IMG/VR virus record: IMGVR_UViG_3300027905_000001
Span: 1 to 64,000 of that record
Reading direction: 5' to 3' (one strand)
DNA: 64,000 nt
Source of the DNA: a virus
Below are positions 13,686-58,605 of this stretch, one piece after another. A program made the translations under genes and the position numbers. The first letter of the stretch is position 1; every line of letters begins with the position of its first letter. Under the pieces are notes generated by a model. It did not search any database. It was not told where the DNA came from and worked only from the letters and a program-made list of their open reading frames with translations.

Positions 13686-15386
13686 TTAAATTAAACTGTC
13701 GAATATCTCTTTTTTCCTCAAGTAAACCGTATACGCATCCAGGAGACTAAGTGCCCCATCAATGAATCCTTTTGACTTGACCTTAACTGGGGTTATATTA
13801 GCGTTTCGGTCAGTTTCGACAGCTAAATTGCACAAGCAAAATTCGAGCATTGGGTTTTTATTGTAGTTAATTCTCTTCATTCCAAAGTCTGCACCCATGT
13901 CTTTCAACGGCCTATTTAACGTCTTCCCACCTTGAATAACCTTGGCATCCTCCTTGACCATCGCACTCCCAAAGCCCTCATTTTCCATTTCCTTAATCCA
14001 GTATTCGGAATTCCAAAAATCATATCCTATGGTTTGGATATACAAGTTATAATCATCACGCATATCCACGAACCAACTTGTTACATATGAATAATCAACT
14101 CTATTTCCCGGTGTCAGCGTGAGTAATCCGCGATCTATCCAAGCCTGATAAACAACTTGCTTGGCAGGTGGTGCGTTAATGAACGTTTCGGATGGCATCC
14201 AATACATTTGGTGGCAGAGGAATTTATTTTCTAGCCTCGGAAATAATAACGTCGCGCTCGTTAAGTCAGTCGTGCTACTAAGATCAACCCCTCCGACACA
14301 GTAAAGTCCTTTGATTTCTTCAAGCTCAAATGTTTCCTCATTCCGAATTGTACTGTATTCAAGGAACGCATTACTCAGCGTACCAATGACGTTAAAGTCT
14401 TTAGTCAAGACAGTATTCTTAAAAGTTCGGTCAACCGCCGCTTTCCTAACGTTTTCCCTCAGCGTTTTGACAACTTTAATAGTTCCAAGCCCAGGGTTCG
14501 CCTTTACCCAAACTGATTCATTCTTGAAATCGTCATCCTTGTCCAGTATATAAAGCAAAGGTAGAAAATGTTCGTCCTCGTAACCCTCTATCCCGTTTAT
14601 TACATTAACCGCATATTCGAACTGGAAGTCAAAGATACTCTCACGAATGAATCCGGCAGTCGTTATGCACCACATTAACGGTTGATCCCTAGTGCCGAAA
14701 GACTGTTTCATTACGTCATAGAGTTCTCTTGTACGCATTCCATGTAATTCGTCCATAAGACAAACGTGTGTATTCAATCCGTCTAGACTATTTCCATCAC
14801 TGGATAATGGCTCAAACTTACTAAATGTCGCGGGGAAGCTTAGGTCAGTTCGACGCTTTTTGATGTGCTTTTGAAGAGAGGTTGATTGCCTGACGATGTT
14901 CGTTGCTTCCGCAAAGATGATTTTTGACTGATCGAGCTTCGTGGCTACGCTGTAAACCTCACTGCCGCCTTCGCCATCCCCGACAAGCCCATACAATCCA
15001 AGCGCTGCCGCCAGACTACTCTTACCGTTCTTGCGACCAACTAGTAGTAATACTTCTGTATATTTCCTAAGACCTTCTGAATTAACAAACCCATAAACCA
15101 ATTGGAGCATTGCCTTTTCCCACAAATCCAGCACAAATGGCTTCCCTATCCACTTCCCTTTACTCTGCTTGCATAACGTTTCAACGAAGTCAATCGGCTT
15201 AGTGCCCTTCTTAATATCGAAGTGGTACTCGCCTGGATTGCTCAAGTCATCGACTATCTTTTCATAGGCTTTCTTAACATAAATACATGCTACTATTTCG
15301 CCTGATTGGATTTTATCGTTGTATTCTGTGATGTAGTTAACAAAAGGCTCACTGAGCGTAGCGTTGGAGGAATTCGAGCAAGTCAT
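13686..15386 (-). CDS. terL: Terminase large subunit (likely start at ATG 15386; track start 15410)
   Basis: Walker A GRKNGKS, Walker B-like LMDELH, C-terminal nuclease-like region; GGGGAGG RBS before MTCSNSS. Confidence 0.9.
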   Translation of the reverse strand: MTCSNSSNATLSEPFVNYITEYNDKIQSGEIVACIYVKKAYEKIVDDLSNPGEYHFDIKKGTKPIDFVETLCKQSKGKWIGKPFVLDLWEKAMLQLVYGFVNSEGLRKYTEVLLLVGRKNGKSSLAAALGLYGLVGDGEGGSEVYSVATKLDQSKIIFAEATNIVRQSTSLQKHIKKRRTDLSFPATFSKFEPLSSDGNSLDGLNTHVCLMDELHGMRTRELYDVMKQSFGTRDQPLMWCITTAGFIRESIFDFQFEYAVNVINGIEGYEDEHFLPLLYILDKDDDFKNESVWVKANPGLGTIKVVKTLRENVRKAAVDRTFKNTVLTKDFNVIGTLSNAFLEYSTIRNEETFELEEIKGLYCVGGVDLSSTTDLTSATLLFPRLENKFLCHQMYWMPSETFINAPPAKQVVYQAWIDRGLLTLTPGNRVDYSYVTSWFVDMRDDYNLYIQTIGYDFWNSEYWIKEMENEGFGSAMVKEDAKVIQGGKTLNRPLKDMGADFGMKRINYNKNPMLEFCLCNLAVETDRNANITPVKVKSKGFIDGALSLLDAYTVYLRKKEIFDSLI

Positions 15387-15645
15387 CTTTAGTTTCCTCC
15401 CCTTTCGCATCAGGTAACATCTTAAGTAGCTTATCCACTAAATTAGCATAAGCCCTAGTCCCGGAGTAGTACATGGTCACGTCTTTAGCCTTTGCTGTGC
15501 CGCCGTTTATTTTGGCACTAAGCTTTTTGATGATAATGTTTATGTCTGCCATTTGAGCTATGAAGTCGCGGGCTATGTTGCGTTGTTCAGGTTGGATTAG
15601 GGATAGGAGATCGTCGAGGGGGTTGAGTTCGATTGTTGGTTCCAT
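15349..15645 (-). CDS. Hypothetical protein (98 aa) overlapping terL start
   Basis: ORF with 3' end overlapping terL by about 38 nt; no motif recognised. Confidence 0.45.
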   Translation of the reverse strand: MEPTIELNPLDDLLSLIQPEQRNIARDFIAQMADINIIIKKLSAKINGGTAKAKDVTMYYSGTRAYANLVDKLLKMLPDAKGEETKDDLLEFLQRYAQ

Positions 15646-18020: not shown

Positions 18021-18329
18021 TTAGAGTTGTTTTGCGTCTACCTTCTCCACCCAAACTATATCCCCATTAGCATCGAACTTCAGCTCATCATCATGCCTAG
18101 CTCTAGTTTGTTCGTGGCACTTCCTGCATAGGAGTTCGAGGTTATTCCAGCTATAGCACTTCTCAGGGTTGTTAACGGTGTCCCATGCTGTTATAGGGTC
18201 CTTGTGGTGGACTTCTTCGCCTTTGGATCCGCATTGCTCACAGAGACCGAACTTAGAGGCAAAGAAAGCTTTGCGGCATTTGATCCAGGCGCTTCGTCCG
18301 TAGAATAGTTTGAGTTGGCCTTGACTCAT
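18021..18329 (-). CDS. HNH endonuclease (terminase-associated type)
   Basis: 102 aa; CEQCG...VHHKDP...LELLCRKCHEQ (HNH with zinc-binding Cys pairs). Confidence 0.85.
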   Translation of the reverse strand: MSQGQLKLFYGRSAWIKCRKAFFASKFGLCEQCGSKGEEVHHKDPITAWDTVNNPEKCYSWNNLELLCRKCHEQTRARHDDELKFDANGDIVWVEKVDAKQL

Positions 18330-19230: not shown

Positions 19231-20130
19231 CTAGATACTATCCTCAGCAGCCTTGCGCCGGATCTCTAAGTCAGCCTCATTAACTGCGGTCCTGCGCTCT
19301 GCAAGTTTAAGATTAGCGTCATCAACTTTGCGCCGATGCTGATCCGGAGTGAGGTCAAAGAAGTCCGCCAGCCGGTCAAGTGCCTTATGCTTGTCGTGGA
19401 ACTTAATAGAGATACCATCCTTAGTCTGCCGAATCTCCTGCACCATCGAAGTGTCCACCTGGTCGCTGTTTTTGATCCTAACGAAGTTGACATCCTGCAC
19501 CTGGTACTGACCGTCCGGGCCGACTACGCGCTGGCCGTCGAGATATACCCAATCCTGAGTGGTCCCGAACTCAAAGAAGTCTCCAGGATCGGACATTGCT
19601 ATTTTTTCGTAGACCTCCAGTACATCGCGCTTGGTAAGAAAGATGTCCTGAGCTATATCACCTTTCAGCCGCCGGATCTCTGCCGCAACCTTAACGTCTC
19701 TTAACATCCGGCTGCCCTGGACATGTGCGCCGGCCTTTGGACACCCTGCTTTTATTGCGGCCATCGTTGCGTTGTGATCCTTGACAAAGTGTAGCGCGAA
19801 TAGCTGCTGCTTTTCTGTGAGCGGCGAACTCTCTACTATATAATGCGTCTCGCTCCCGGCTGCTTCTTCCGGCCGTTTCTTTCCCTGGTCCGTTGCCGCT
19901 TTCTTCCGGCCGGACTTCTTGTCCGTTGCAACGCTCTTCTTTTGCGTTGCATTGCGTTGCTTGCCTTGCGTTGCGTTCTGCGTTGCATCGTTGGCCGCTT
20001 CTGCTTTGGCCCAGTTCTCTCTGTTCTTCCGGCTGCGGATCGTGCCCGCGCTGATTCCGTGTTTTGCTGCAAGGTCCCGAAGCGTAATCTCTGTCGTCTC
20101 GTATTCTGCGCGTATTACTAGCCAATCCAT
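19231..20130 (-). CDS. terS: Terminase small subunit
   Basis: N-terminal HTH (ITLRDLAAKHGIS), low-complexity basic linker, conserved LTEKQQLFALHFV...NATMAAIKAG core. Confidence 0.8.
   Translation of the reverse strand: MDWLVIRAEYETTEITLRDLAAKHGISAGTIRSRKNRENWAKAEAANDATQNATQGKQRNATQKKSVATDKKSGRKKAATDQGKKRPEEAAGSETHYIVESSPLTEKQQLFALHFVKDHNATMAAIKAGCPKAGAHVQGSRMLRDVKVAAEIRRLKGDIAQDIFLTKRDVLEVYEKIAMSDPGDFFEFGTTQDWVYLDGQRVVGPDGQYQVQDVNFVRIKNSDQVDTSMVQEIRQTKDGISIKFHDKHKALDRLADFFDLTPDQHRRKVDDANLKLAERRTAVNEADLEIRRKAAEDSI
19928..19994. repeat. Tandem imperfect TTGCGTTGC repeats inside terS (coding for NATQ-type repeats)
   Basis: About seven overlapping copies of GCGTTGC/TTGCG between 19928 and 19994. 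Confidence 0.5.
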
Positions 20131-20202: not shown

Positions 20203-20236
20203 AAGTTAAGATCTAATTTTGAAGGAGGTAAACGGC

Positions 20237-20632
20237 ATGACAAAGCTCGAAATTGCTAAAAACATTAATGCCATCAAGGATTTAGGCCGCATTATTGCAA
20301 CGAATTGGGAGATGGACTTTGTTGAAGGAGGAATCTATGACAATAAGGGCAATGTCGAAAGCTGGACTGACCGTGATAATTCAAAAGTGGCCTTTAAGCC
20401 CGAAAGCACCGGCACGATAACTTATGTCCTTCAATGCAATAAAGTCCCCTGTCACGTAGTAGACTACACTAGCACTGATGAAACTCGCGCCCTTGGCGCT
20501 ACTGGCTGTGAAGATGAAGCTGAATGCCTGGTATTACCTGAAACAAAAATGATAATTACCTACGTTTCCACTGAAGATGATTTCAACGAAATGGGATATT
20601 ACTTAGTGGAAATGGAGATTGTCAATGAGTAA
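20237..20632 (+). CDS. Hypothetical protein (131 aa)
   Basis: GAAGGAGG RBS 8 nt before ATG 20237; no motif recognised. Confidence 0.6.
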   Translation: MTKLEIAKNINAIKDLGRIIATNWEMDFVEGGIYDNKGNVESWTDRDNSKVAFKPESTGTITYVLQCNKVPCHVVDYTSTDETRALGATGCEDEAECLVLPETKMIITYVSTEDDFNEMGYYLVEMEIVNE

Positions 20633-21230
20633 TCGCCATGGACACCCCCTTACTTCTGAACAAAAGGGAGCGAGGGAGATTGAATATCGGAAAATGGCAT
20701 TGGAATTTCATAAAGAAACAGGACGTTCGCCCCGGATGGCAGACTTACCTTTTCCTTATAAAATCTTTAAGGTTCACGACACGTGGAATGCATTTCTTGA
20801 AGATTGCGGGCTAGAGGTTAACCGTTTAACCACGGACGTTGAGAAATATTCTTTAATATTCGATTACAAGGAATTAGCTAAAAACTTAGAACGGACTCCT
20901 TACGCATTAGAATTTTATAAAAAATTTGGTTGCCAATACGCAGTCCGCAAATTATTTGGATCATGGAATGCATTTGTTAAAGCTTGTGATCTTAAATTAA
21001 ATAGATTCACAGGAGCAGAAAAAGAAGAACTTGTGGAACGCGTCTTGAAATTAGCTAAGAAATTAGGTAAAACACCTACAACTCGTGAATTTAATGCACA
21101 CGCAAAGAAAAGTAATCTATGCACGACGATGGTTATATGTCGGTATTTCGGAACATGGACGGAATGCCTTGAGTTTTGCGGGTTAGAGCCTAACCAAAAT
21201 AAAAATTTTAAGCGTAGAAAGAAGGATTAG
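20619..21230 (+). CDS. Protein with three tandem ~55-aa repeats (tentatively homing-endonuclease-associated HTH-like repeat)
   Basis: Repeats ending WNAFLEDCGLE / WNAFVKACDLK / WTECLEFCGLE. Confidence 0.55.
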   Translation: MSMSNRHGHPLTSEQKGAREIEYRKMALEFHKETGRSPRMADLPFPYKIFKVHDTWNAFLEDCGLEVNRLTTDVEKYSLIFDYKELAKNLERTPYALEFYKKFGCQYAVRKLFGSWNAFVKACDLKLNRFTGAEKEELVERVLKLAKKLGKTPTTREFNAHAKKSNLCTTMVICRYFGTWTECLEFCGLEPNQNKNFKRRKKD

Positions 21231-21232
21231 CG

Positions 21233-21397
21233 ATGGCAGAAACAACAACCGACGACCGCGAACGCATGACACTACGCATCCCCCAGGACATTTGGCGCAT
21301 GATCAAAATGGACCTGATTGACAAAAAAGAAAAGTCGGCCAATGAGCTTATCACAAACTTAATATATGAGCACTACAAAGTACCCCGGCCGCAATAG
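21233..21397 (+). CDS. Ribbon-helix-helix (CopG/Arc-like) DNA-binding protein, 54 aa
   Basis: Not in ORF track (under 60 aa); MAETTTDDRERMTLRIPQDIWRMIKMDLIDKK...; GAAGGA RBS; start overlaps upstream stop. Confidence 0.55.
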   Translation: MAETTTDDRERMTLRIPQDIWRMIKMDLIDKKEKSANELITNLIYEHYKVPRPQ

Positions 21398-21447
21398 CTG
21401 GGGGTTTTCTTTACCTAAAAATACTTAATATTTATTGTCTTAATGCC

Positions 21448-21476
21448 TTGACACCACGACATAAAAGATGTATTAT
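21448..21476 (+). promoter_or_regulatory. Sigma-A-type promoter (TTGACA-17-TATTAT) with long GC-rich leader
   Basis: -35 TTGACA 21448-21453, -10 TATTAT 21471-21476; shares CTTGACACCAYGAYATAA with the 20185 region. Confidence 0.55.
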
Positions 21477-21648
21477 TAACACATGGAAAACAGCACTCCA
21501 GCCCAATCCAGTGCAACAAACGCTTCCCCCGGCCAATTGCGGTCCGGGTCCGCCAAGAAGCCGAGAGAGAAAAGTTGACCGTGTGTCAGGGAAGAAGATT
21601 AATCCCGACAGGCTACAAAGGGAGCCGGGGAAAAAGGAGTTTTAAATT

Positions 21649-21858
21649 ATGAAACAAACTTATTACAGCGTTGGTTATTACTCAGGAAGATCGAACAGCA
21701 CTAGCACGGCGTTTTTTGATACTAAAGAGGCGGCTGAAAAATTTGCAGATCATGATTACAGGGATAACGTGGTAGCGCATCACGTGAGCAAGCCTGAGAC
21801 GATTGCGAAATACGATGAGCTAGTTGCTATGACGGCGTTTGAGCTTAGAGACCGTTAG
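21649..21858 (+). CDS. Hypothetical protein (69 aa)
   Basis: AAAAAGGAG RBS then ATG; no motif. Confidence 0.55.
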   Translation: MKQTYYSVGYYSGRSNSTSTAFFDTKEAAEKFADHDYRDNVVAHHVSKPETIAKYDELVAMTAFELRDR

Positions 21859-21971
21859 GATTTGCAGATGGCACCGGCCAGCACCCGGTGTAATGCACTA
21901 GCAGGCGTCCAAAGTCGCCGCAAATGCATCCCGACAGCTCGCAAGGAACGGGGAAAAGGAGGTCAGGACAG

Positions 21972-22418
21972 ATGCTCTATCACAGATTTACTAACTCATC
22001 AAACGTAATGTCCAACTGGGGTCACGCAATGTTTGCGGCCAACAGGGACGCGGTCGAAAATTACGGTAGTAAAGAGTTTATCTTTAAATCATCTAGGGAC
22101 AATAGCAAAACGATCAAGTCGCTCAAATCACTGATTATCAAAACTTGGAAGTACGATCAAAAAAATGGCTTTACCGGGGACTTTGGCAACGGCTGCACAG
22201 ATGATTACTACTACAACGTCAAGGATAATGCAGTGGACGCTATTAGTATTTACAACAGCTTTGACCCGTCTAGCGTTGTGGAGAGCGCCGATGCTTGGGA
22301 CTCCGAGCTTTATCAATGGTTTTGGGAGCGTATCGCGGAGCCTAACGGCATTATGGCAGTTACAACTCAAGATGGGGCAATAGTATTTGATGCAGACTTA
22401 ATTAAGGAGGTATGTTAA
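21972..22418 (+). CDS. Hypothetical protein (148 aa; track start 21924)
   Basis: GGAAAAGGAGG RBS before ATG 21972. Confidence 0.55.
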   Translation: MLYHRFTNSSNVMSNWGHAMFAANRDAVENYGSKEFIFKSSRDNSKTIKSLKSLIIKTWKYDQKNGFTGDFGNGCTDDYYYNVKDNAVDAISIYNSFDPSSVVESADAWDSELYQWFWERIAEPNGIMAVTTQDGAIVFDADLIKEVC

Positions 22419-22679
22419 ATGTCTAATGAGGATGACGTTATGTTTTTCAAAATAGCAAAGGTTAAAGCCGCTATCAGCAGGGTCCTAGACGGGTGCGTAA
22501 ACGAGTTGCCGGATATCCAGTTTGGATGGAGCGGATCAGTTATCGAGGTTTATTTATCCGGCGGTAATTATCAAGTCCGCAACCTTATCGAGTCCCATTT
22601 TGTAAATAGCAGGAGGTATAAAGGCGTTACAATTACAAACAACGACACCAAAAAGCGTATCAGCTTTATTTTAAATTAA
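22419..22679 (+). CDS. Hypothetical protein (86 aa)
   Basis: AAGGAGG RBS, start abuts upstream stop. Confidence 0.55.
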   Translation: MSNEDDVMFFKIAKVKAAISRVLDGCVNELPDIQFGWSGSVIEVYLSGGNYQVRNLIESHFVNSRRYKGVTITNNDTKKRISFILN

Positions 22680-22700
22680 GAAATTGAAGGAGTGTTAAAA

Positions 22701-22919
22701 ATGAAACGATTAGACATTTTTAAAAGCGAAGGTGGATACAGATTAGCATTGGGAATCTACAACGACAGCCCCGTAATTGACAAGTCTCCTTGGTTCGAAA
22801 CCAAGGAAGAGGCCGAAAAAGCAAGGCGCGAAGTCATAGAAGAAGATGAGCGAGAAGCCAAAATTGAGCAGTATATCCAAGATGGCAATATCGAGGCCCT
22901 CGAAAACATGGATAAGTAA
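22701..22919 (+). CDS. Hypothetical protein (72 aa; track start 22692 GTG)
   Basis: GAAGGAG RBS before ATG 22701; acidic C-terminus. Confidence 0.5.
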   Translation: MKRLDIFKSEGGYRLALGIYNDSPVIDKSPWFETKEEAEKARREVIEEDEREAKIEQYIQDGNIEALENMDK

Positions 22920-23013
22920 TTGCAGAGGATTAGGAGCCTAAAAACTCCTAATAATGCGCTAGGCAAGCGGTTCCAAGCCCGCGCCAATCGCAATTTTGAA
23001 AGGTGGAGCAATC

Positions 23014-23250
23014 ATGAAATACACCATAGCTGAATACCACGGCATAGACCGGCACCAAATGCAAGCCCATACCGAGGAAATCATTACCAAGCTTGAATTT
23101 ATTCGAACAACATGCACGGATGCCGAATCGCTCGAATACACTGACGCCCAACTCGAATTTTACCGCGAAGAACTAGCCAGTAAATCCCTGCTTATGTCAT
23201 CATGGTGGGAAGTTGAGAACTACATGCGGAAAGGTAGGAAAATAGCATGA
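23014..23250 (+). CDS. Hypothetical protein (78 aa)
   Basis: AGGTGGAG RBS before ATG 23014. Confidence 0.5.
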   Translation: MKYTIAEYHGIDRHQMQAHTEEIITKLEFIRTTCTDAESLEYTDAQLEFYREELASKSLLMSSWWEVENYMRKGRKIA

Positions 23251-23438
23251 CCATCTACATCCATGAGTTTTACAAGGACAAGGAAAAGGCGCTCGCATTG
23301 GCTGAACTACCGGACGAACTAGATTATCACCGATTTGTCCACGGCTGTGAGCCTAAAAAGGTGAACATAGTCCCTTATTGGGCAGATTGCGACAAGTACA
23401 AGGCGAATAAGTCCACCATGACACTGTTTATTAGCTAA
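23247..23438 (+). CDS. Hypothetical protein (63 aa)
   Basis: Start overlaps upstream stop (ATGA). Confidence 0.45.
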   Translation: MTIYIHEFYKDKEKALALAELPDELDYHRFVHGCEPKKVNIVPYWADCDKYKANKSTMTLFIS

Positions 23439-23518
23439 CATCAAGGCTTTTAGCCTTGGCTCAGCCGCTTTTTGAGCGGTTCAGCGAGGACTAAAAACGA
23501 ATGAAAGAGGTAATTTAC

Positions 23519-24439
23519 ATGAGCATGATCAACGAACAACTAGCCCAACGATCAAAGGAAAACATGAGTTTTTCCGACTACAAACCCGGCAGCGCAACGG
23601 CTGAATTCAACCAGGAAATAGCCAACGTCACCACGTTAGTTGAATCGGCCAAGCTCAGGGTATCCGACGAAGGGAAAGCCAAGCTAGATCGTTTCCTAGC
23701 CTCTTACACCTCTCGTTATGCCGCATGGACCAATAAGCGCAACGCAAATGGTGCAGGACATGTTAGTGTTATGATCGCAGGCCCAGCTAACTACAACATG
23801 AGAGCGCACGAAAAGTACATGAGCCGTGAAGGTAATCTCTGGAAAGAATACGAGGAATTCCGAAACCCTGAGTATAAAATTTCCTCCATCGTCGCAGGTG
23901 ACAGAGTTATAAAATCCAATGATGTCAACGCTATTGAAAAATTGCAGGAGAAAATAGACGGACTTGAAAAAATGCAGGAATTAATGAAAGCTTGTAACGC
24001 CATCATCCGTAAAAAGAAGCTGACCGACGAAGAGAAGATTGCTGCAATGGTAGAAGCTGGAGCCAGCGAAAAAGCCGCAAAAGAAACCTTGACCCCTAAT
24101 TTTATGGGCAGAATAGGTTTTGCCTCTTATTCGCTCAGTAATAACAACGCAACGATCCGAAACGCCAAGCAACGAATATCCCAGCTTGAGAAGATCGCTG
24201 CACGCGGCACGCAAGAGACTGTCATAGAATCAGACGCGGAGGAAACAAACGGCATACGCATAGTTGACAATGTTGAAGCGCATCGGCTGCAAATATTCTT
24301 TAATGGCAAGCCATCGGCAGAAGTTCGAACACAGTTAAAGAAAAATGGATTTAGGTGGACGCCTAGTATTTCCGCGTGGCAGTCGTATCGAAGTGAGAGC
24401 GCAAACCGGGCAGCGCGTGAAATAGTGGCAGCAATGTAA
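23519..24439 (+). CDS. Hypothetical protein (306 aa) with conserved-looking C-terminal RLQIFFNGKPS...GFRWTPSISAWQSY module
   Basis: AAAGAGG RBS before ATG 23519; C-terminal motif resembles small domains seen in phage/conjugative-element proteins (tentative). Confidence 0.5.
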   Translation: MSMINEQLAQRSKENMSFSDYKPGSATAEFNQEIANVTTLVESAKLRVSDEGKAKLDRFLASYTSRYAAWTNKRNANGAGHVSVMIAGPANYNMRAHEKYMSREGNLWKEYEEFRNPEYKISSIVAGDRVIKSNDVNAIEKLQEKIDGLEKMQELMKACNAIIRKKKLTDEEKIAAMVEAGASEKAAKETLTPNFMGRIGFASYSLSNNNATIRNAKQRISQLEKIAARGTQETVIESDAEETNGIRIVDNVEAHRLQIFFNGKPSAEVRTQLKKNGFRWTPSISAWQSYRSESANRAAREIVAAM

Positions 24440-24523
24440 TTATATCGCGGGACCATCTTTGGCCCTGCTCCAAATGTCCGATTATGGGCACTTGGAGGAG
24501 AATCAAAATTTAGAGGTGATCAA

Positions 24524-24712
24524 GTGGCGGAAACGTGGTTCTCTCGACTTAAAACAGAGATAGAAGATTCGAGAGACTTGCAAGAAATTCTTGGTGTTAA
24601 AGTTATCGAGCATCTTTTGTGGAACAATATCTCTCGCGAACAATACGAAACTCTCTCTAGCCTGCGCGTAAAAAGAATCCTGGAAAATTGGCACGAAGAA
24701 TTTTTGGCTTAA
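24524..24712 (+). CDS. Hypothetical protein (62 aa)
   Basis: Short ORF with GGAGGAG upstream. Confidence 0.4.
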   Translation: MAETWFSRLKTEIEDSRDLQEILGVKVIEHLLWNNISREQYETLSSLRVKRILENWHEEFLA

Positions 24713-24767
24713 ATCCACGCCGGACTATTCCGGTTTTTTCCCAACTAAAATTAAGGAGGAATAACTT

Positions 24768-25382
24768 ATGTTTCATGCGTTCACGCTCGAACAAGCGAAC
24801 CTCAGAGAGGTCCAAGGTTGGAAGGTCGGCCAACATGTCCAAGTCAAAGAATGGCGTGGTACTTACGAAATCGAAGGCTACCACCAATACGGAAGGCAAA
24901 ACGAGTACACCACTGTATACCTTGCCAAGCTCAAGAAAGACGGTACTAAGAGCAAATACAGCGGCGATACACCTATCGCTAACCTCATGCCATTGGGAGC
25001 GGCACAACCAACAACAGACAGCGCAGGACGAACAGCACTGCAGGCGGCACAGGAGCTATTCGGTAGCGGCTTTGCTAAACACGGATGGTATAACACGGAT
25101 CGCGAATCACTGGTAAAGGTTGAGACGATCAGTAAGACAGGACGCGTCAAGGTGCAAGATATAAGCGTCAAGGCTGGAATTACGGCACGTTCAAAGACTG
25201 TAGATGGACATAAAGTTTACAGTCAAGAAGATCGCCTGGTAAACTTTGCGGATCTCGAATACGGTCTAAGTGGAGATATAAAAACATTCACGCCGCGCCT
25301 TTTTTGGGGTGAATGGGGCTTTTGGCATGATGGGGAAATTATCAAGGCCCCAGATATGAAGCTTACGTGGTTGCTAGATTAA
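24768..25382 (+). CDS. Hypothetical protein (204 aa)
   Basis: AAGGAGG RBS; last gene of the island, followed by terminator. Confidence 0.55.
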   Translation: MFHAFTLEQANLREVQGWKVGQHVQVKEWRGTYEIEGYHQYGRQNEYTTVYLAKLKKDGTKSKYSGDTPIANLMPLGAAQPTTDSAGRTALQAAQELFGSGFAKHGWYNTDRESLVKVETISKTGRVKVQDISVKAGITARSKTVDGHKVYSQEDRLVNFADLEYGLSGDIKTFTPRLFWGEWGFWHDGEIIKAPDMKLTWLLD

Positions 25383-25392
25383 CATAATTTAA

Positions 25393-25416
25393 AGCCGGAC
25401 ATCATCCGGCTTTTTG
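25393..25416. terminator. Rho-independent terminator closing the plus-strand island
   Basis: AGCCGGA ... TCCGGCT stem followed by TTTTT. Confidence 0.65.
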
Positions 25417-25439
25417 GCGTTCCCGTTATTATCTTTCCG

Positions 25440-25835
25440 GCTCCATAGGCTTATACGCCACCCTAGCCCATGCAAGCCCTAGAACGCCGTATAAGCCCCC
25501 ATAATCTCCGTGTGGTCACTATGCAACCTATCGTTATCCAAGGCCCTTATATACCGTTCTGTGTCCTATCATATCGCAAGCCCTACAAGACGTTTTAAGC
25601 CCTCGAAATATCAAAGGCATAACTATGTCAATCCCTAACTATTCAACGCCATACAGGTGCCATTCTGCGCCTGTGATAACGCTCTGCGCCTATGTGCCGA
25701 TACCCTAACGACGGCGGCAAAACGTCCTCTAATTACCTCAATTTGTCGCCTATTGTCGAAGTTCGCCTGATTTCACCCTGATTTTATGACCATATTTCGA
25801 CATTCCCAAAATTCTCTCGACATTCCCAAAATATC
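25440..25835. repeat. Repeat-dense non-coding region (iteron-like direct repeats)
   Basis: Seven or more AAGCCCT-type motifs (including GCAAGCCCTAGAACG / GCAAGCCCTACAAGAC), TCTGCGCCTRTG x2, TCGACATTCCCAAAAT x2. Confidence 0.6.
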
Positions 25836-25893: not shown

Positions 25894-26133
25894 TTATTCG
25901 TCCTCGAATCGACAACCGCGGTTACTCTTCATCATCCGATCTCTTGCCATAAACGCCATACTGTTCTCGAACTCTTCCCATTTTCGAGCTGTCTCGTATC
26001 GCTTGTATGCACTTAGGTATTCGTCGCAATATGAAGCAGGAACATTGGCGCAGCTAGAACAACTAGAACTAGAGCGTCCTATATCGCGATATATTCGGGG
26101 TTTGTAGCATCTGCATCGAGGCGGTTCTCTCAC
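25894..26133 (-). CDS. Small Cys-rich protein (79 aa), GTG start
   Basis: TAAGGAGGG RBS 8 nt before GTG 26133; CRCYKPRIY...CSSC...C. Confidence 0.45.
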   Translation of the reverse strand: MREPPRCRCYKPRIYRDIGRSSSSCSSCANVPASYCDEYLSAYKRYETARKWEEFENSMAFMARDRMMKSNRGCRFEDE

Positions 26134-26257
26134 TAGTTGCTCCCTCCTTAATCCATAGGCAATGGTCAACGTCATACTTCCTGCATAAGGCGCAGTTGGT
26201 TCGTTCAAGGCTTTTGTCTATTGCGCTGAATTCTTTGCAGCTTCTGTTCTCTCCCAT
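26069..26257 (-). CDS. Small Cys-containing protein (62 aa), overlapping the downstream ORF
   Basis: GAGGG RBS before ATG 26257; CKEF...CALC...HC. Confidence 0.4.
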   Translation of the reverse strand: MGENRSCKEFSAIDKSLERTNCALCRKYDVDHCLWIKEGATSERTASMQMLQTPNISRYRTL

Positions 26258-26293
26258 AAATTAGCCCTCATTTTAGGATAATTTTCGAACAAT

Positions 26294-26429
26294 ATTAAAG
26301 CATGCTTTTTTAGTTTGAATTAAAGCATGCTTTTTTGGTTTTTGTTTATGTAATTAAGGCATGCTTTTTCTATGTCTGAAATTAAGGCGTGCTTTTATGT
26401 ACCACCATCAAGATTAAGGCATGCTTTTT
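26294..26429. repeat. Five tandem copies of palindrome-containing site ATTAARGCRTGCTTTT (candidate protein-binding array)
   Basis: Copies start at 26294, 26319, 26353, 26381, 26413; each contains AAGCATGCTT-like palindrome. Confidence 0.7.
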
Positions 26430-26703
26430 GAGTAAAAAAGTGAACACCCTCAATTAAGAAGGTGTTCGAGTGAGAATAGAGAAGGAGGACAAAATTAAAA
26501 GCCCTTGCGAGCTTGTCAAATATTCAAAATAAAGCCGGTTCCAGATCGTAGAACCGGATTCTCCTTCTACACACGGTAGATGAGTTAAATAAACGAAGCA
26601 CCGAACGACCACGATACGTAGGTCAATTCGATGCTTCTCAATGTTATAATCATAAACCTTTTACAGCTCAAATGTGGTAATAAATCGGTAATATTCTGGT
26701 AAT

Positions 26704-27276
26704 CTATACGTATTTACTAAAATAAAGGTATCTTTGAAATAATGGCCCTAATATCTCCCACAATACTTCAAGCGCTTCTCTGTTAATCTTCCTTAACATT
26801 TCGTTTGTGATATAAACTCTACCAACAGAATGGCGCTCGTTAAACACAATCTCAATGTTCCTCCATGTCATGACTTCAAAGTATTTAGACCTAATAACGG
26901 TTTCCTGTTCCCTCGTTAATGCCTTCAGCGCTTCATCAATCTGCTCCATCTCAAGCGTCTTAAACCTCATCTTCGACCGATCCTCGTCAATCCAAGCCTC
27001 AACTAATTCCCTCGTAACCTCTCTGCGCCCTGCTATATGCTCGGTCGGCGAAGTTGTAGTTGTTGCGTGCGGCATACCGATAATTCTACTTACGCTGTTC
27101 TCGAATAACCATAGCTCTCCCGCGCTCAATGCTTGTTCCCATACCAGGATTCTCTGCATAGTTGTCACGACTTCTGCTTTATGTTTTTTATAGAGTTTCA
27201 AGCGTTCTTCGAGTATGTTTTGGGATTCTTTTATCATTGCTATGGTTATTACCTCCTCTCTACCGTTTTGCGCCAT
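26704..27276 (-). CDS. Sigma-70 region-4-like late transcription regulator (ArpU/RinA-like, tentative)
   Basis: C-terminal LTREQETVIRSKYFEVMTWRNIEIVFN...VGRVYITNEMLRKI resembles region 4 HTH; sits before the packaging module. Confidence 0.5.
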   Translation of the reverse strand: MAQNGREEVITIAMIKESQNILEERLKLYKKHKAEVVTTMQRILVWEQALSAGELWLFENSVSRIIGMPHATTTTSPTEHIAGRREVTRELVEAWIDEDRSKMRFKTLEMEQIDEALKALTREQETVIRSKYFEVMTWRNIEIVFNERHSVGRVYITNEMLRKINREALEVLWEILGPLFQRYLYFSKYV

Positions 27277-28191: not shown

Positions 28192-28795
28192 CTTCCTCCG
28201 TTTCCCAATAACTCATTTCGGATTCCATTGCTTCGATAAGTTGTTCGATGGTTTCTATGGGTTCTTCATAACCAGTGAAGGCTTCGAATTCAGATTCGGT
28301 GGCCCTGGCTTCGTTGAAAATCTTGATTAACTTTGATAGTTTTATTAGATTTTCTTTCATTGCTTCATCCATTACCTCGGTTGGTCCGTCCCACTGCCCC
28401 AAACTCTTAATATCAAACACGATCCCCACACAGAAAAGCGCATCATCTTCCATAATCTTAAACTCGGCATGATGAATATCCGTCTCATATGCCCAGGCCA
28501 CTTCTCCTTCATTATGCCAAATAGCTTCTATCTGTTTACATTTCTGTTTCGCTAAAGCTGAATGAACGCATTCGCAATCACATTCCTCGAAAATTCCGTG
28601 TTCATCGAGGTAAATTGTCTTTCCATCAAAACATCCAACTTCTTCGTTAATAGCTCCCCTAAATTCTGCGTTGTCATCCGAATATCCGAACACTACGACG
28701 AACCCGAGTTCCTTAGCCCTTATTGTATCCACTTTGCTTATCTCATTACCCATTTCATTACCGTCCAACATCTCGGCAAACTCCTGTATATTCAT
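28184..28795 (-). CDS. Hypothetical acidic protein (203 aa)
   Basis: ORF track frame, operon context. Confidence 0.5.
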   Translation of the reverse strand: MNIQEFAEMLDGNEMGNEISKVDTIRAKELGFVVVFGYSDDNAEFRGAINEEVGCFDGKTIYLDEHGIFEECDCECVHSALAKQKCKQIEAIWHNEGEVAWAYETDIHHAEFKIMEDDALFCVGIVFDIKSLGQWDGPTEVMDEAMKENLIKLSKLIKIFNEARATESEFEAFTGYEEPIETIEQLIEAMESEMSYWETEEVE

Positions 28796-29025
28796 TACTT
28801 TTCCTCCTTAGCCGAATTCAAGTTCCTAATCCTAAATCCCAAACCCCTCAACTTCTCCCTAATCTCATTAATCGAAAAGCTGGACATATTCCTTATCTCT
28901 GGCAATCCGAGATACGACATCTTAGTCAAATCCTCAAGGGTATTGATTCCTGCATTTCTCAGGCAACGCAAAGTTCTTGCGGTTAATCCGAGCTCTTCGA
29001 TTGTTTTATTGAGCGTGTCGTTCAT
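28795..29025 (-). CDS. RNA polymerase alpha-subunit C-terminal-domain-like (helix-hairpin-helix) protein
   Basis: 76 aa; IEELGLTARTLRCLRNAGINTLEDL matches alpha-CTD HhH pattern. Confidence 0.6.
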   Translation of the reverse strand: MNDTLNKTIEELGLTARTLRCLRNAGINTLEDLTKMSYLGLPEIRNMSSFSINEIREKLRGLGFRIRNLNSAKEEK

Positions 29026-36961: not shown

Positions 36962-37471
36962 CTAATCTTTTTTTGTCCTGTGGTCAAAATCTTTGGCAAA
37001 TAATAAATGATCTACCGTCATGCCTAAAATCCTAGATACTGTAGCCTCGCCGTAATCTCCTAATCTTTCTTCAAGTGGTTTGGGGTAGTAGTTCGTCGTA
37101 AACCCCGTCAATAGATTGGCGCGATACCTTAGATCAATCAGCCGGTAATACATCGCTTGCACCCATTCTGTGGGTTTTTCCTTGCCGACATCGTCCAAGA
37201 TCAGAGCTTGAGCCTTGGCTAAAGTTTCAATCTTTGCCTCCATGCCACTTTCGTTTTTCCTGAACTGAGCATCCCTTAACTCTGCAAGTAAGTCGGCAGA
37301 CGATACAAACACAACCTGCACCCCTTTATCAAGCATGTCCTTGGCGATAATGCTGGCTAACATCGTTTTCCCTACTCCTGGATTTCCGAGCAATAAAAAC
37401 CCTTTGGCGTCCGATTCACTTTTGATTAATTCAGGCCATAGCTTTAAGTAATTAATTACACCCTTGTGCAT
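36962..37471 (-). CDS. DnaC/IstB-like helicase-loader ATPase (N-terminus probably longer; frame open upstream to about 37730)
   Basis: Walker A GNPGVGKT, Walker B LILDDVG; upstream 87 in-frame codons lack a canonical start. Confidence 0.7.
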   Translation of the reverse strand: MHKGVINYLKLWPELIKSESDAKGFLLLGNPGVGKTMLASIIAKDMLDKGVQVVFVSSADLLAELRDAQFRKNESGMEAKIETLAKAQALILDDVGKEKPTEWVQAMYYRLIDLRYRANLLTGFTTNYYPKPLEERLGDYGEATVSRILGMTVDHLLFAKDFDHRTKKD

Positions 37472-37730
37472 GTTTCGGTTTCCGTCGTTGACTTTATAAT
37501 TAGCAAGGCTGTATCTGAGCTGTTGAGATGTTAGCCCGGATGATTTTAGTTTTCTGGCCGCGTTCTTCTTAATCTTACAAACACACTCCTTGTAAAGCGT
37601 TAGTCCGTATAAGTCTTTTTCATCAGTGGCAACTATCTCCCGATCTTCACAATCAGAGCAGTTATATTTCTTTTCGACAGGTTTTAAACTGTATCCAGAT
37701 GTTCCAGTGTTGAAAAGGTTAAGTCTGTTC

Positions 37731-38651
37731 CTAACTTCTTCCTCTGAGGATTTCGGAGAGTATGGGGTCCGTTTCCCAAGGTTTAGAATCTCCTTGATCG
37801 ATTGAATTGCTTCCAGTTTTGTTACCTCCCTTGGCTTTTAAGTTCTTGCCCCATTTAACACAATTTCCCAGCCACGTATTAATCTGTGATCTTGGTTTAC
37901 TTTTTACATCAAGCGGCTTATCTAGTTTGTCGAAAGACCAGTCCTTAATCGCTCCCAAGATATCTATGGTTGGGTATCGTTCTTGAAGCTCTCGGTACAT
38001 TTTCAATTCCTTCGCCCTGTCAATCGGATAATCCTTAACTTTTTCAAGTGTGCGAATTAGGTCTATTTCATCAGGCAGAAGAATGAGATCATTTTCTTTT
38101 CTTTCTTTTACTTCCTTTCCTTTACTATTCTCTTCTTTAGGGATTTCTGTAGGAAATAATCCATCTTCAAGAGGATTAATGTCTACATTAACTACAGATG
38201 GTAGGTTGTTACCGTCAACATAAACCATATTTACAGTAAAATTATCAGTTTGCTTAGGTGGAGAAATAAGTAGATATTCAGATATGAGCGTTATCTCTTT
38301 GCGTCTTTCTACAGATTTGAAGTATCTTTTTTGGATTCCTCCGCTAGTAAGTATTTCGTATTTTAGATACAAGGATGAATTGAAAAATTCCCACTTAATG
38401 CAATCAGAAACTATCTCGGTGATAATATTAATGTCTACATTAACCTTACTGGAGAGTAGTAATTGTTCGCGCTCTGTCCATTTATAGAAATATCCTTCCT
38501 TATATATTTTCATAAGAAGTTTGATTAAAACCGCAAATCCAGTGATCTTATGCTTTGCTTCAATAAGCAAAACTTTGTCGTCTTGGTCCATGTCAATATC
38601 GAGGGGAAAATAATCCAATCCCTCTTTTTGCGGTCTTGCCAAGTCATTCAC
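37731..38651 (-). CDS. Phage replisome organiser (DnaD-like, Lin1244/Lin1753-type N-terminal domain)
   Basis: 306 aa; N-terminal FPLDIDMDQDDKVLLIEAKHKITGFAVLIKLLMKIYKEGYFYKW. Confidence 0.65.
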   Translation of the reverse strand: MNDLARPQKEGLDYFPLDIDMDQDDKVLLIEAKHKITGFAVLIKLLMKIYKEGYFYKWTEREQLLLSSKVNVDINIITEIVSDCIKWEFFNSSLYLKYEILTSGGIQKRYFKSVERRKEITLISEYLLISPPKQTDNFTVNMVYVDGNNLPSVVNVDINPLEDGLFPTEIPKEENSKGKEVKERKENDLILLPDEIDLIRTLEKVKDYPIDRAKELKMYRELQERYPTIDILGAIKDWSFDKLDKPLDVKSKPRSQINTWLGNCVKWGKNLKAKGGNKTGSNSIDQGDSKPWETDPILSEILRGRS

Positions 38652-38862
38652 CTTCCACTAAAGAAAAAATATCATCATATGGAATATCAAGCTCCTCAGC
38701 TATCTTCTTGGCTGTAGCAGGACTAGGGTTGAATCTGCCCTTTTCGATTGCATAAATACTTTCCTTGGACACTCCAACCTTCTTGGCTAAATCTGCAATT
38801 GACACGCCTTTTCTTATCCTTAACTCCGCTAATTTAGCTCGGTCGGTTTTAATTTTTAACAC
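38644..38862 (-). CDS. XRE-family helix-turn-helix transcriptional regulator
   Basis: 72 aa; LRIRKGVSIADLAKKVGVSKESIYAIEKGRFNPS (Cro/CI-type HTH). Confidence 0.75.
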   Translation of the reverse strand: MLKIKTDRAKLAELRIRKGVSIADLAKKVGVSKESIYAIEKGRFNPSPATAKKIAEELDIPYDDIFSLVEGE

Positions 38863-52363: not shown

Positions 52364-52662
52364 TAAAATCCTCTCCTTGATTTAGTTGGCCGCTTTTTGA
52401 TTCGACTCTTGAGCTTGAACCAAATTGATAATCGCGATAACTCCTTCACGAATCTTCTTAGAGCTATAAATTGGAGGAAGATACGTGACTTTATTTTTTG
52501 ATGCCAAATAATTTCTCTCCTTTTCGTTTTATGTGTATAATACTTTCGCAAATAGTAAATAATATTAACGTCGAGATCAAATAAAAAGGAATTGCTTAGA
52601 AAAAGCGTGGACAAGTATTGCGTAAATGTAAATACAATTTATAATGTAACGTGTAAGTAATA

Positions 52663-52905
52663 TTAACGCAATGCGTCCAACACCGCCTCGGATTGGGCTT
52701 CCATTTCTACGTCTGGGAACAACTCGTTAACTGGAGTATCAAACAAGAAAGATAGCTTCAGCATTAACTTGCCACTAGGCGTTGCGTTGCCGTTCTCAAT
52801 ATACCTTATCATGGTCCCAGTAACTCCGACGGCAGCGCCTACTTTATCCTGTGTGCCATAGGCTCTTCTTAGTTGTTTGAATCTTTCTCGTTTATGTCTT
52901 GTCAT
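52663..52905 (-). CDS. Cro-like XRE-family HTH regulator (first gene of early operon)
   Basis: 80 aa; QDKVGAAVGVTGTMIRYIENGNATPS HTH; divergent from repressor gene. Confidence 0.7.
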   Translation of the reverse strand: MTRHKRERFKQLRRAYGTQDKVGAAVGVTGTMIRYIENGNATPSGKLMLKLSFLFDTPVNELFPDVEMEAQSEAVLDALR

Positions 52906-52985
52906 TCTGTATCACCACCTTTGTCCTTGATAGAATATTATCACGTAAATCATATTAACGCAATATGTAAATTATACTTTCTTTT
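52906..52985. promoter_or_regulatory. Divergent promoter/operator region of the lysogeny switch (ATATTAACG operator-like repeats)
   Basis: ATATTAACG at 52953-52961, with related copies at 52660-52668 and 52560-52568. Confidence 0.5.
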
Positions 52986-56299: not shown

Positions 56300-56527
56300 A
56301 TGGACATAACTAAAATCCAAAAAATCGTTCGCAAGGCTATCAAGGACTACGCCATTACCGCAAAGTACGATGAGGAAATTCTAGTATCATTTCTCAGCGT
56401 GGATATTTTCCGGGAGATCAACGAGGATTCCCCGGCACCTCTCTCGGATCCCAAGGCTCCCCCTCGCCGCAATACTAACCAGAATGCATTAGGTCTGGTA
56501 AATCACGAAGCAGGTGAAACGCCATGA
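56300..56527 (+). CDS. Hypothetical small protein (75 aa; track start 56261)
   Basis: GGAAGTGAGG RBS before ATG 56300; 3' end overlaps next gene (ATGA). Confidence 0.4.
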   Translation: MDITKIQKIVRKAIKDYAITAKYDEEILVSFLSVDIFREINEDSPAPLSDPKAPPRRNTNQNALGLVNHEAGETP

Positions 56528-57852: not shown

Positions 57853-57966
57853 TTGTACTCAACGATTCAATGCGCTTTATAGGCTCCTTTGGTCATGCCG
57901 TGCGGTCCGTAAAGTGCTTTATTATCCTTACTTTTTTATTTTGTATTTATTTTATATTTTTGCGAG

Positions 57967-58605
57967 GTGAAAATTGTGAACTTAGTGGCATATGGCAAGC
58001 AACGAGACGAACGAATTATGGGGCTAGTAGGGCTTGGGACAGCCTTTACGCGAAGCCAAATAGAGCGAGTTATATTTAAGGGAAGTAAGCGTAAGGCTCA
58101 GACTAGACTGCAGGTGCTATCCGATTCAGGGCGACTAAAAAAGATTATCCGCAGTCCCCACGAACCAGCCATCTATTGCCTCAAAAAACCCCGAAATATC
58201 GATCATTATTTACTTATCAATGAAATCTATTGTGCCGTAATGTCTCAGAAAAAGTCTTGGCATATCGTCAAGTGGCAATGGTCATATCCAATTATGGAAG
58301 GTAAGATTTGGGCAGACGCAATGGTTGATATTTACGACCAACTCAATAAGCGTAGGCATGTTATATTTGTTGAGGTTGAGCGTTACGCAGACCGTAAGTT
58401 CGAGAAGGATAAAAAGTATTCAGCCATTACCAGCGCGAACTGGACGAAAGAAGAGTGGGCGATTAAGGAGCCTACAAGGATATTGTTCCCGGCAATCCTA
58501 GTTGTCACCGAATGCAAATTAGAGGTCAAAAGCGAGTTGGATTTCTTTGTTGCCACGATGGACCAAGTCAAAAAAGACATTTACTCTATTATCTTAAGGA
58601 GGTAA
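57967..58605 (+). CDS. Replication-relaxation-family-like protein (winged-helix N-terminus), tentative
   Basis: 212 aa; N-terminal LVGLGTAFTRSQIERVIF...RLQVLSDSGRLKKI; central VIFVEVERY. Confidence 0.45.
   Translation: MKIVNLVAYGKQRDERIMGLVGLGTAFTRSQIERVIFKGSKRKAQTRLQVLSDSGRLKKIIRSPHEPAIYCLKKPRNIDHYLLINEIYCAVMSQKKSWHIVKWQWSYPIMEGKIWADAMVDIYDQLNKRRHVIFVEVERYADRKFEKDKKYSAITSANWTKEEWAIKEPTRILFPAILVVTECKLEVKSELDFFVATMDQVKKDIYSIILRR

Follow-up and report, generated by a model that had tools for sequence, protein, structure and literature searches.

Stoperators, known from mycobacteriophages L5 and Bxb1, are single-orientation repressor sites that lie inside transcribed regions and block elongation; about 20-30 such asymmetric sites are dispersed genome-wide, and they match the operator of the immunity repressor. 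Lambda-type replication origins carry iterons, 4-6 direct repeats with an internal dyad and A/T-tract flanks in AT-rich DNA, and the metboxes of MetJ, an RHH repressor, are tandem palindromic boxes that are contiguous at 8-bp spacing. In Gram-positive siphophages, the Ltr proteins (RinA, ArpU, LtrC) recognize 7-nt direct repeats, 2-4 in number, that lie just beyond the gene encoding the regulator (Quiles-Puchalt et al. [quoted passage not shown] 2011, PMC3152322). According to its citation in PMC3152322, lactococcal phage TP901-1 has an activator, Alt, encoded directly upstream of its tandem binding repeats, which occupy -76 to -32 of the late promoter and abut a promoter with a poor -35.

Here we describe one regulatory-looking repeat cluster in a single uncultured prophage. 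The phage is temperate, and the contig in which it is integrated belongs to Candidatus Desulfosporosinus infrequens, under whose name the identical protein P0004 is filed at the source. The cluster, five palindromic-core sites just downstream of an Ltr-type regulator gene, is a variant of a known element type, the phage cis-regulatory repeat array. By comparing the locus with those of its relatives, assisted by scans for the motif in the window (the whole stretch of 64,000 nucleotides that was analysed) and in public databases, we tentatively hypothesize that the array is an operator or roadblock for a putative, probably dimeric, DNA-binding protein other than the Ltr-type regulator. The genes of the prophage are mostly on the minus strand, and the landmarks of the window that are needed below are as follows.

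52.6-54.8 kb: lysogeny switch and serine integrase.
30-46 kb: recombination and replication genes.
37731..38651: replisome organiser, with a DnaC-like loader in the same replication module (nearest replication genes 36962-38651).
38092-38138: (TTTTC)n internal repeat tract of the replication module.
26704..27276, minus strand: Ltr-type (ArpU/RinA-like, DUF722) late regulator gene, 190 aa.
26069..26257, minus strand: Cys4 ORF of 62 aa (C7, C22, C25, C33), with the Shine-Dalgarno (SD) sequence GAGGG at 26269-26265.
20219..25382: block between the regulator and terS-like genes, reversed, with the opposite direction of transcription.
20130..19231: terS-like gene, with its own internal TTGCG repeats.
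18329..18021: HNH gene.
15410..13686: terL.

The reversed block holds an HNH-repeat protein, an RHH protein, two twister-P5 ribozymes and a 312-aa phrog_19458 protein, and a bidirectional terminator at 25391-25413 closes this convergent block; the prophage as a whole is rich in insertions, including HNH genes and the reversed cargo block. The 62-aa Cys4 ORF is the positional and sequence homologue of a small Cys ORF that follows ltr in relatives: it aligns with the type found in the relatives L002, L008 and L014, and is 36% identical to the corresponding ORF of the relative L179 (pairwise E = 1e-9). Because a 53-aa Cys4 ORF is normal at this position in L179, the ORF of the window is probably intact. 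The 104-aa ORF that overlaps it is an orphan. A single frameshifted gene in place of the two overlapping Cys-rich ORFs was considered and rejected; a fused query retrieved only the contig's own 79-aa call. Searches of Pfam, PHROG and NCBIfam returned no match for the Cys ORFs or for a 204-aa ORF.

The original prediction had described five near-identical sites downstream of the regulator gene, and all five are confirmed at the starts given, in one shared orientation, as copies of the unit ATTAARGCRTGCTTTT.

26294..26309: site 1, ATTAAAGCATGCTTTT, with the perfect 12-bp palindrome AAAGCATGCTTT at 26297-26308.
26319..26334: site 2, ATTAAAGCATGCTTTT, with the perfect palindrome AAAGCATGCTTT.
26353..26368: site 3, ATTAAGGCATGCTTTT, carrying AAGGCATGCTTT.
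26381..26396: site 4, ATTAAGGCGTGCTTTT, carrying AAGGCGTGCTTT; the most divergent of the five.
26413..26428: site 5, ATTAAGGCATGCTTTT, carrying AAGGCATGCTTT.

Measured from the regulator stop (26704), the array extends from 276 to 410 nt downstream, and it ends 37 nt before the ATG of the Cys-rich ORF (26257). Allowing at most one mismatch, ATTAARGCRTGCTTTT matches five times in the 64-kb window against 0.00 expected (100 shuffles), all five inside the array; the search elsewhere in the genome that the original prediction had proposed as a check thus finds no other copy within 64 kb, and the motif is not scattered. Likewise, the 12-bp core AARGCRTGCTTT matches 24 times with up to two mismatches in the window (25.7 expected), with no excess outside the array, and its matches with 0 or 1 mismatch are the array copies only. 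Copies 3-5 differ by A-to-G changes in the left arm or the centre of the palindrome, all three substitutions being A-to-G on the plus strand. The conserved unit reaches past the palindrome in every copy, taking in an ATTAA at one end and a T-run at the opposite end.

Pairwise identity is 94% among the 16-nt cores and 39.5% (optimal alignment) among the spacers, as against 39.1 +/- 2.1% for shuffled spacers. This contrast makes the 16-bp units look as if they were held by purifying selection, and random-level similarity together with unequal lengths (9-18 nt) in the spacers argues against a recent tandem duplication. From start to start, or equally from centre to centre, the sites are 25, 34, 28 and 32 bp apart, i.e. 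2.38, 3.24, 2.67 and 3.05 helical turns; the sites are thus not phased and do not sit on one face of the helix. That the array is not a CRISPR, as had been suggested, agrees with these dimensions: CRISPR-type layouts have repeats of about 24-48 nt and spacers of similar length, whereas these repeats measure 16 nt and are separated by spacers of 9-18 nt. The stretch 26250-26400 has a GC content of 27-30%, the most AT-rich of the region, largely because of the repeats' own A/T flanks. Neither the region nor the array had a BLAST match among GenBank phages. A Logan contig identical to the window stops within the array; assemblies tend to end at repeats.

To place the array in an evolutionary context, the DNA downstream of ltr was read or scanned in 14 IMG/VR loci (L001-L014) and 12 loci from Logan, NCBI, ENA and JGI (L179-L190), whose regulators are 71-83% identical to that of the window (75-82% in the 14 IMG/VR loci). 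No GCATGC-type array is present downstream of ltr in any of them, including the closest relative, L179 (regulator 83% identical), and L001 (in these two the regulator is 82-83% identical to that of the window). The loci read in detail share a common layout: ltr is followed by periodic repeats, a -10-like element and a short leader that ends in a terminator-like hairpin and T-tract, and the SD then comes within about 10-25 nt and precedes a small Cys-rich ORF of 51-83 aa. In L179 the hairpin GAGCGCTG...CGGCGCTC is followed by ACTTTTTATTGAGGTGATCATTATG, and hairpin and T-tract abut the ribosome-binding site of the small Cys4 gene. At the equivalent position the window has a hairpin of different sequence, GAACACCTTC...GAGGGTGTTC, followed by ACTTTTTTACTC (ACTTTTT also follows the L179 hairpin); then come about 160 bp with the array, and only after these TGAGGGCTAATTTATG.

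26271..26434, minus strand: segment of about 160 bp absent from L179, with edges good to +/-5 bp, between the T-tract and the SD of the Cys4 ORF.

The boundaries of this segment were read by eye, the MAFFT alignment being poor across the gap. Since the L179 hairpin directly abuts the ribosome-binding site and the array is missing from all relatives examined, the array appears to be a lineage-specific insertion of about 160 bp, or else to have been deleted in all other lineages. The insertion point falls exactly between the conserved hairpin T-tract and the ribosome-binding site of a conserved gene. If the array is indeed a protein-bound gate, the empty site of L179 offers a clean natural experiment on how phages gain cis-regulatory modules by small insertions.

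The gene upstream, the last of the early cluster, has properties that fit the Ltr superfamily of late activators (RinA, ArpU, LtrC). Source databases start it at an internal Met (177 aa, 27237..26704). Its product matches phrog_36, 'transcriptional regulator' (E = 5e-9), and matches Pfam DUF722 weakly; many homologues have DUF722 among their precomputed matches, and in two of them Sigma70_r4_2 is present as well. In an AlphaFold model built with 25 homologues (mean pLDDT 82.4, pTM 0.72), the C-terminal ~70 residues superpose on sigma region 4 domains such as 3hug and 2h27 (target-normalised TM-score 0.72-0.81, rmsd 1.3-2.4 A); Foldseek gives this likeness weak E-values (0.27 and above). Between the regulator gene and the Cys4 ORF the following features can be recognized in addition to the array.

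26714-26709, minus strand: degenerate fourth copy, AATACG, of the repeat in the next line, within the last ltr codons just upstream of the stop (whole element 26676..26714).
26703-26698, 26692-26687 and 26681-26676, minus strand: ATTACC three times with an 11-nt period, from the first base after the ltr stop onward.
26643..26671, minus strand: putative Ltr-dependent promoter, TTGAGC (26671-26666), 17 nt, TATAAC (26648-26643).
26525..26557, minus strand: terminator-like hairpin T1, CCGGTTC...GAACCGG (26557-26535) with a CTTTATTTTG tail.
26434..26467, minus strand: terminator-like hairpin T2 + T6, GAACACCTTC-TTAATT-GAGGGTGTTC (26467-26442) with T6 at 26439-26434.
26319-26314 and 26297-26292: alternative weak promoter candidate, TTCAAA, 16 nt, TAATAT, with the core of site 1 in its spacer.
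26270..26299, minus strand: candidate promoter of the original prediction, TTTAAT (26299-26294), 18 nt, TAAAAT (26275-26270).

The periodic (T)ATTACC element (match count 2, against 0.02 expected) is the expected binding site of the Ltr-type regulator, separate from the array. Repeats with a period of 11 or 22 nt right after the ltr stop recur in relatives, as ATTACC in L001, L010, L005 and L184, ATTACA in L179, AAAAGTACC three times in L188, and 22-nt repeats in L013, L180 and L189. The putative Ltr-dependent promoter begins about 5 nt downstream of the last ATTACC repeat; its TATAAC -10 region is kept in L001, L013 and L179, and the -35 is poor in relatives, which is the pattern expected of an activator-dependent promoter. 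A start near 26636 would put the ATTACC repeats at about -78 to -40, so that the position of the Alt repeats in TP901-1, as cited, would be matched by the ATTACC element of the window and not by the array. With the Ltr systems the array shares a terminator between the regulator gene and the downstream unit. Ltr repeats are, however, 7 nt long, present in 2-4 copies and adjacent to the gene, whereas the array consists of five 16-bp units with palindromic cores, 276-410 nt off and beyond two hairpins; gene-adjacent repeats of the Ltr kind are found instead in ATTACC x3 at 26703-26676. As the ATTACC element fits the published Ltr architecture and the array does not, the array is not the regulator's expected target, and telling the two apart matters for the design of gel-shift experiments in this phage family.

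Both hairpins stand between the regulator gene and the array; a terminator scan found T1 and T2 here and no intrinsic terminator inside the array, and judging from their sequence they may terminate, pause or merely stabilise transcripts. As for a local promoter, promoter-like matches in the region are fewer (2) than in shuffled sequence (4.4). The weak promoter that had been proposed, TTTAAT-18-TAAAAT, exists as a sequence match but is a poor one: its candidate -10 (26275-26270) directly adjoins the SD (26269-26265), and a transcript starting 5-9 nt past that -10 would be stripped of its ribosome-binding site. In relatives, hairpin and SD are too close to accommodate a promoter, and their small ORF must therefore be read from a transcript begun before the hairpin. 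By analogy, the leader transcribed in the window would be about 380 nt long and probably includes the array.

These observations suggest the following arrangement. An inserted segment of about 160 bp would have brought in five same-orientation 16-bp sites, each with a 12-bp dyad core, that have since been kept by selection. They would lie within the transcribed leader of the first post-ltr gene, downstream of an Ltr-dependent promoter (at about 26671-26643) and of two hairpins. A protein bound there would gate the downstream unit by blocking or modulating RNA polymerase that arrives from upstream, as a roadblock similar to a stoperator, and/or would occlude or activate a weak local promoter overlapping site 1. 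What we infer here, from the sequence and its comparison with relatives, is that a protein binds, in which direction it regulates and where transcription starts. The array resembles the stoperators of L5 and Bxb1 in having same-orientation sites in what is probably a transcribed leader, between a putative promoter and genes, which makes a roadblock plausible; its orientation is uniform, and transcription through it would follow from the abutment of hairpin and SD in relatives. It differs in being a single cluster of five with a palindromic core whose motif is absent from the CI/Cro switch region. The likeness to metboxes consists in tandem short palindromes, with one dimer expected on each; here the spacing is 25-34 bp, and the window's only clear RHH gene is 5 kb away with no such site upstream. 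An operator is favoured by the conserved ATTAA and T-run flanks and the single orientation, which are more than hairpin formation needs, and by the contrast between cores and spacers. Against it stand the irregular, unphased spacing, which is unusual for cooperative operators, and the confinement of the array to one phage, so that comparative support comes from the core/spacer contrast only; the three A-to-G changes (plus strand), moreover, are ones that a helix of plus-strand RNA could equally accommodate by G-U pairing. Were a protein-bound gate to be confirmed, the first transcription unit after an Ltr-type late regulator would be under a second control, specific to this lineage.

On position, the simplest candidates for the binder are the Cys4 protein, by autoregulation, or a host factor, because the Cys4 ORF is the only gene with array sites upstream; in L179 the Cys4 gene is present without the array. 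The Ltr regulator itself is disfavoured, since the conserved unit is longer than one sigma-region-4 contact and has a dyad core, and the ATTACC element is separate. CI and Cro are unsupported as well: the repeats of the switch region (52555-52970) are of the ATTAACGCAAT type, and the array motif is absent there. Nor were array-like sites found in front of the RHH gene (21233..21397), an XRE gene (38644..38862) or two Rha genes, leaving those binders unsupported. Read on the minus strand, each unit gives AAAAAG, which recalls an UP-element subsite and raised the possibility of the phage-encoded RNA polymerase alpha-CTD; as the alpha-CTD gene is conserved in relatives that have no array, this resemblance was rejected as specific evidence.

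The original prediction had put another idea in first place, namely that the ArpU/RinA-like Ltr regulator binds the array to activate a late promoter that depends on it, with an operator array for another regulator as its fallback. The fallback stays the best explanation, and the headline reading is unsupported and now seems very improbable, even though the array is placed between ltr and the first late-side ORF, site 1 is overlapped by a weak promoter-like match, and a distal layout is possible in principle (RinA reportedly depends on DNA over 155 bp ahead of the terS start site, from which a terminator separates it; PMC3152322). The array is missing from relatives, L179 and L001 among them, whose regulators are 82-83% identical; its units are not 7-nt direct repeats; a sigma-region-4-like DNA-binding domain, as modelled, would be a monomeric reader of short asymmetric elements, ill-suited to a 12-bp palindrome; and the abutment of the proposed -10 on the SD and the placing of T1 and T2 between array and regulator gene also speak against it. 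A site of DNA transactions, i.e. an accessory iteron-like replication origin, or a partition or packaging array, is unlikely as well. Five direct repeats with an internal dyad in AT-rich DNA do resemble lambda-type origins, and elsewhere, among the matches listed, arrays of the same palindrome adjoin or sit in prim-pol/helicase genes (of AAA_25, VapE, DUF3987 and DUF5906 types). However, no initiator gene is adjacent, the replication module is 10 kb away and has its own (TTTTC)n tract, and the spacing (25/34/28/32 bp) is irregular; a prophage with a serine integrase need not partition, the terS-like gene 6 kb away has its own TTGCG repeats, and L179 keeps the same flanks without the array.

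An element acting in RNA, either as a structured or protein-binding module of the 5' leader of the mRNA for the 62-aa Cys protein (cys62) or as plus-strand hairpin terminators, built from pairs of repeats, against antisense transcription into ltr, would suit a position in a presumed transcribed leader, given that the hairpin of relatives is some 10-25 nt from the SD with no promoter room. In plus-strand RNA, repeats 1 and 2 can pair into a 12-bp helix with U6GGU5 after it. The folding z-score is -4.1 for the plus strand and -6.5 for the whole minus-strand leader, and G-U pairing in plus-strand RNA survives all three A-to-G substitutions (plus strand). Copies of a palindrome will, however, always pair with one another, so that the helices are not independent evidence, and they do not require the ATTAA and T-run flanks that every copy has; three substitutions are too few to show covariation. 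Inter-repeat helices would have loops of 13-16 nt, as against 3-8 nt in terminators; no plus-strand promoter was found in the region, the convergent block is already closed by its bidirectional terminator, and Rfam 15 has no match over the array at gathering or E-value thresholds. Such an RNA element we regard as rather improbable. The array may, finally, be a functionless remnant, the footprint of an insertion or an old tandem duplication. It occurs in one phage only, the prophage carries many insertions, and a very similar unit (CAAAAAAGCATGCTTTAATT) has arisen in another phage family by plain tandem duplication of the 3' end of a gene: the 3' terminus of an RHH-like ORF (...QKSML stop) is duplicated in L061, L069 and L025 as a 47-bp tandem repeat, which shares 20/20 nt with copy 2 of the window. 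Cores that are 94% identical between spacers at random level are nevertheless hard to obtain without selection or gene conversion acting on the cores alone, and a remnant is therefore an unlikely explanation too.

At a larger scale, the same palindrome recurs in other phages. A two-unit pattern scan of IMG/VR gave no match for a homologous array; in GTDB genomes the same pattern hit three unrelated loci (Zoogloea, a Saccharibacteria MAG), and a looser pattern hit 16 loci of diverse GC in JGI metagenomes, which share no gene content with the window. Because the databases contain many repeat arrays, convergence is the preferred reading of the GTDB and JGI matches. Pairs of AAGCATGCTT within 8-38 nt of each other occur at no fewer than 120 IMG/VR loci, compared with 23 for the composition-matched control AACCATGGTT. 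Of the listed loci, 76 belong to one prophage family with CAAGCATGCTTG pairs between cI and cro; this operator family was rejected as a counterpart of the array, being irrelevant here. Among the other listed loci, 11 have 5-10 copies in 15 kb or less, usually with A-tract and T-tract flanks and in one orientation, and the control palindrome never exceeds four copies per locus. Neither a protein shared between the window and the other palindrome-array phages (phmmer E < 1e-3) nor a Pfam family common to 140 array-adjacent ORFs was found among the matches listed. Literature searches for the strings AAGCATGCTT and AAAGCATGCTTT returned only primers, and the recognition sequences of the NrS-1 prim-pol are unrelated to the array palindrome.

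Palindrome arrays of this kind are thus a recurrent sort of cis-element and do not constitute evidence of homology with the array of the window. It is conceivable, though improbable, that (A)nAAGCATGCTT(T)n is the site of a widespread, unrecognised phage or host DNA-binding module with multi-copy arrays in unrelated phages (GC 30-66%), captured here as a gate in the leader of a late operon. Bearing on such a module is the location of arrays at replication genes in some phages: among the matches listed, several of the AAGCATGCTT arrays lie upstream of or inside prim-pol/helicase genes that belong to different families, and the sites inside those genes are in different reading frames, which points to signals at the DNA or RNA level.

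Directly after the stop codon of the ArpU/RinA-like late-regulator gene (ltr, 26704..27276, minus strand), three copies of ATTACC and a degenerate fourth are spaced with an 11-nt period (26676-26714, minus strand). Periodic repeats equivalent to this element are present in relatives, and it is probably here that the ArpU/RinA-like regulator really binds. Within the window, no ATTACC element and no other obvious late promoter is found ahead of terS. In its 5' part, the terS-like gene (299 aa) contains repeats of TTGCG/TTGCGTTGC (19942-19988), which read CGCAA on the coding strand, and a similar AACGCAACGCAA repeat occurs where the terS region starts in L179 (4418-4485), the closest relative, which lacks the palindromic array; the repeats in the terS-like gene may constitute a pac-type recognition site.

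In the leader ahead of the Cys4 ORF, a hairpin occupies the same position in the window and L179 (26442-26467 and 3705-3735, respectively), its sequence not conserved and both arms changed; in both it has ACTTTTT after it and, before it, a stretch that is CU-rich and anti-SD-like (TCCTCCTTCTC in the window, at about 26489-26479). Between T1 and T2, the two terminator-like hairpins that separate ltr from the array, a consensus -35 hexamer TTGACA (26519-26514) stands 16 nt ahead of TAATTT (26497-26492); RNA started at this promoter-like pair (26492-26519, minus strand) would run straight into T2, giving a length of about 50 nt.

Between the Cys4 ORF and terS lies a cargo block (20219-25382, plus strand) that is transcribed against the main phage direction. 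L179 has no such reversed block, its terS following within about 400 nt of the Cys4 ORF, and among other relatives the content of the block varies, including a tyrosine recombinase (L010), RHH proteins (L014) and radical-SAM genes (L001). In the window, the block contains two ribozymes, both scoring above the gathering score, which flank the ORFs at 21924..22919:

21863-21919, plus strand, Type-P5 twister ribozyme (RF02684), 39.7 bits
22921-22982, plus strand, Type-P5 twister ribozyme (RF02684), 44.1 bits

The 62-aa Cys4 ORF is overlapped in a different frame by a 104-aa Cys-rich ORF (25894..26208, minus strand; annotated in the source as 79 aa, P0001), whose only match among 5.8 billion proteins is itself, with no other homologue. 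Because its C-terminus (...MARDRMMKSNRG) resembles those of longer Cys ORFs in relatives, the overlapping ORFs could possibly derive from a longer, frameshifted ancestor. Within 25385-25830 (minus strand), about 390 nt contain no ORF and are rich in G on the minus strand; this stretch is bounded by a promoter-like match (25809-25781), which is preceded by a direct repeat (CGACATTCCCAAAAT, twice, at about 25797 and 25820), and by a bidirectional terminator (25413-25391). The stretch, perhaps a non-coding RNA, has a folding z-score of -3.2 and no match in Rfam.

Conserved across the phage family (L003-L013, L181, L182 and L184-L187) is a gene, lying a few genes ahead of ltr, for a 76-aa protein that is homologous to the alpha C-terminal domain of RNA polymerase and stands alone (28795..29025, minus strand; PF03118, E = 1.6e-17). 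Within the replisome-organiser gene (37731..38651), TTTTC is repeated in tandem about 9.6 times (38092-38138); this (TTTTC)n tract is a candidate phage origin. Just past the serine integrase of the prophage are FtsK/SpoIIIE and Replic_Relax genes (56524-58605, plus strand), and their position suggests that the prophage lies beside, or within, an integrative conjugative or mobilisable element.

The array palindrome also occurs, as (A)nAAGCATGCTT(T)n, in unrelated phage contigs of 34-59% GC in IMG/VR, with 5-10 copies per locus among the matches listed (L073, L074, L082, L087, L089, L099, L105, L112, L129, L136 and L147). Among these matches no protein shared by the contigs was found, and the copies often lie inside or upstream of prim-pol/helicase genes, in differing reading frames. 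Another palindrome-bearing contig, L069, has a 119-aa RHH-like ORF whose 3' end (...QKSML stop) is duplicated to form a 47-bp perfect tandem repeat (four copies, 1493-1643), in convergent orientation to a C5-methylase-like gene of 508 aa; the repeat is also found in L061, L072, L025 and L033, and a 20-nt piece of it (CAAAAAAGCATGCTTTAATT) matches the second array copy of the window at 20 of 20 nt.
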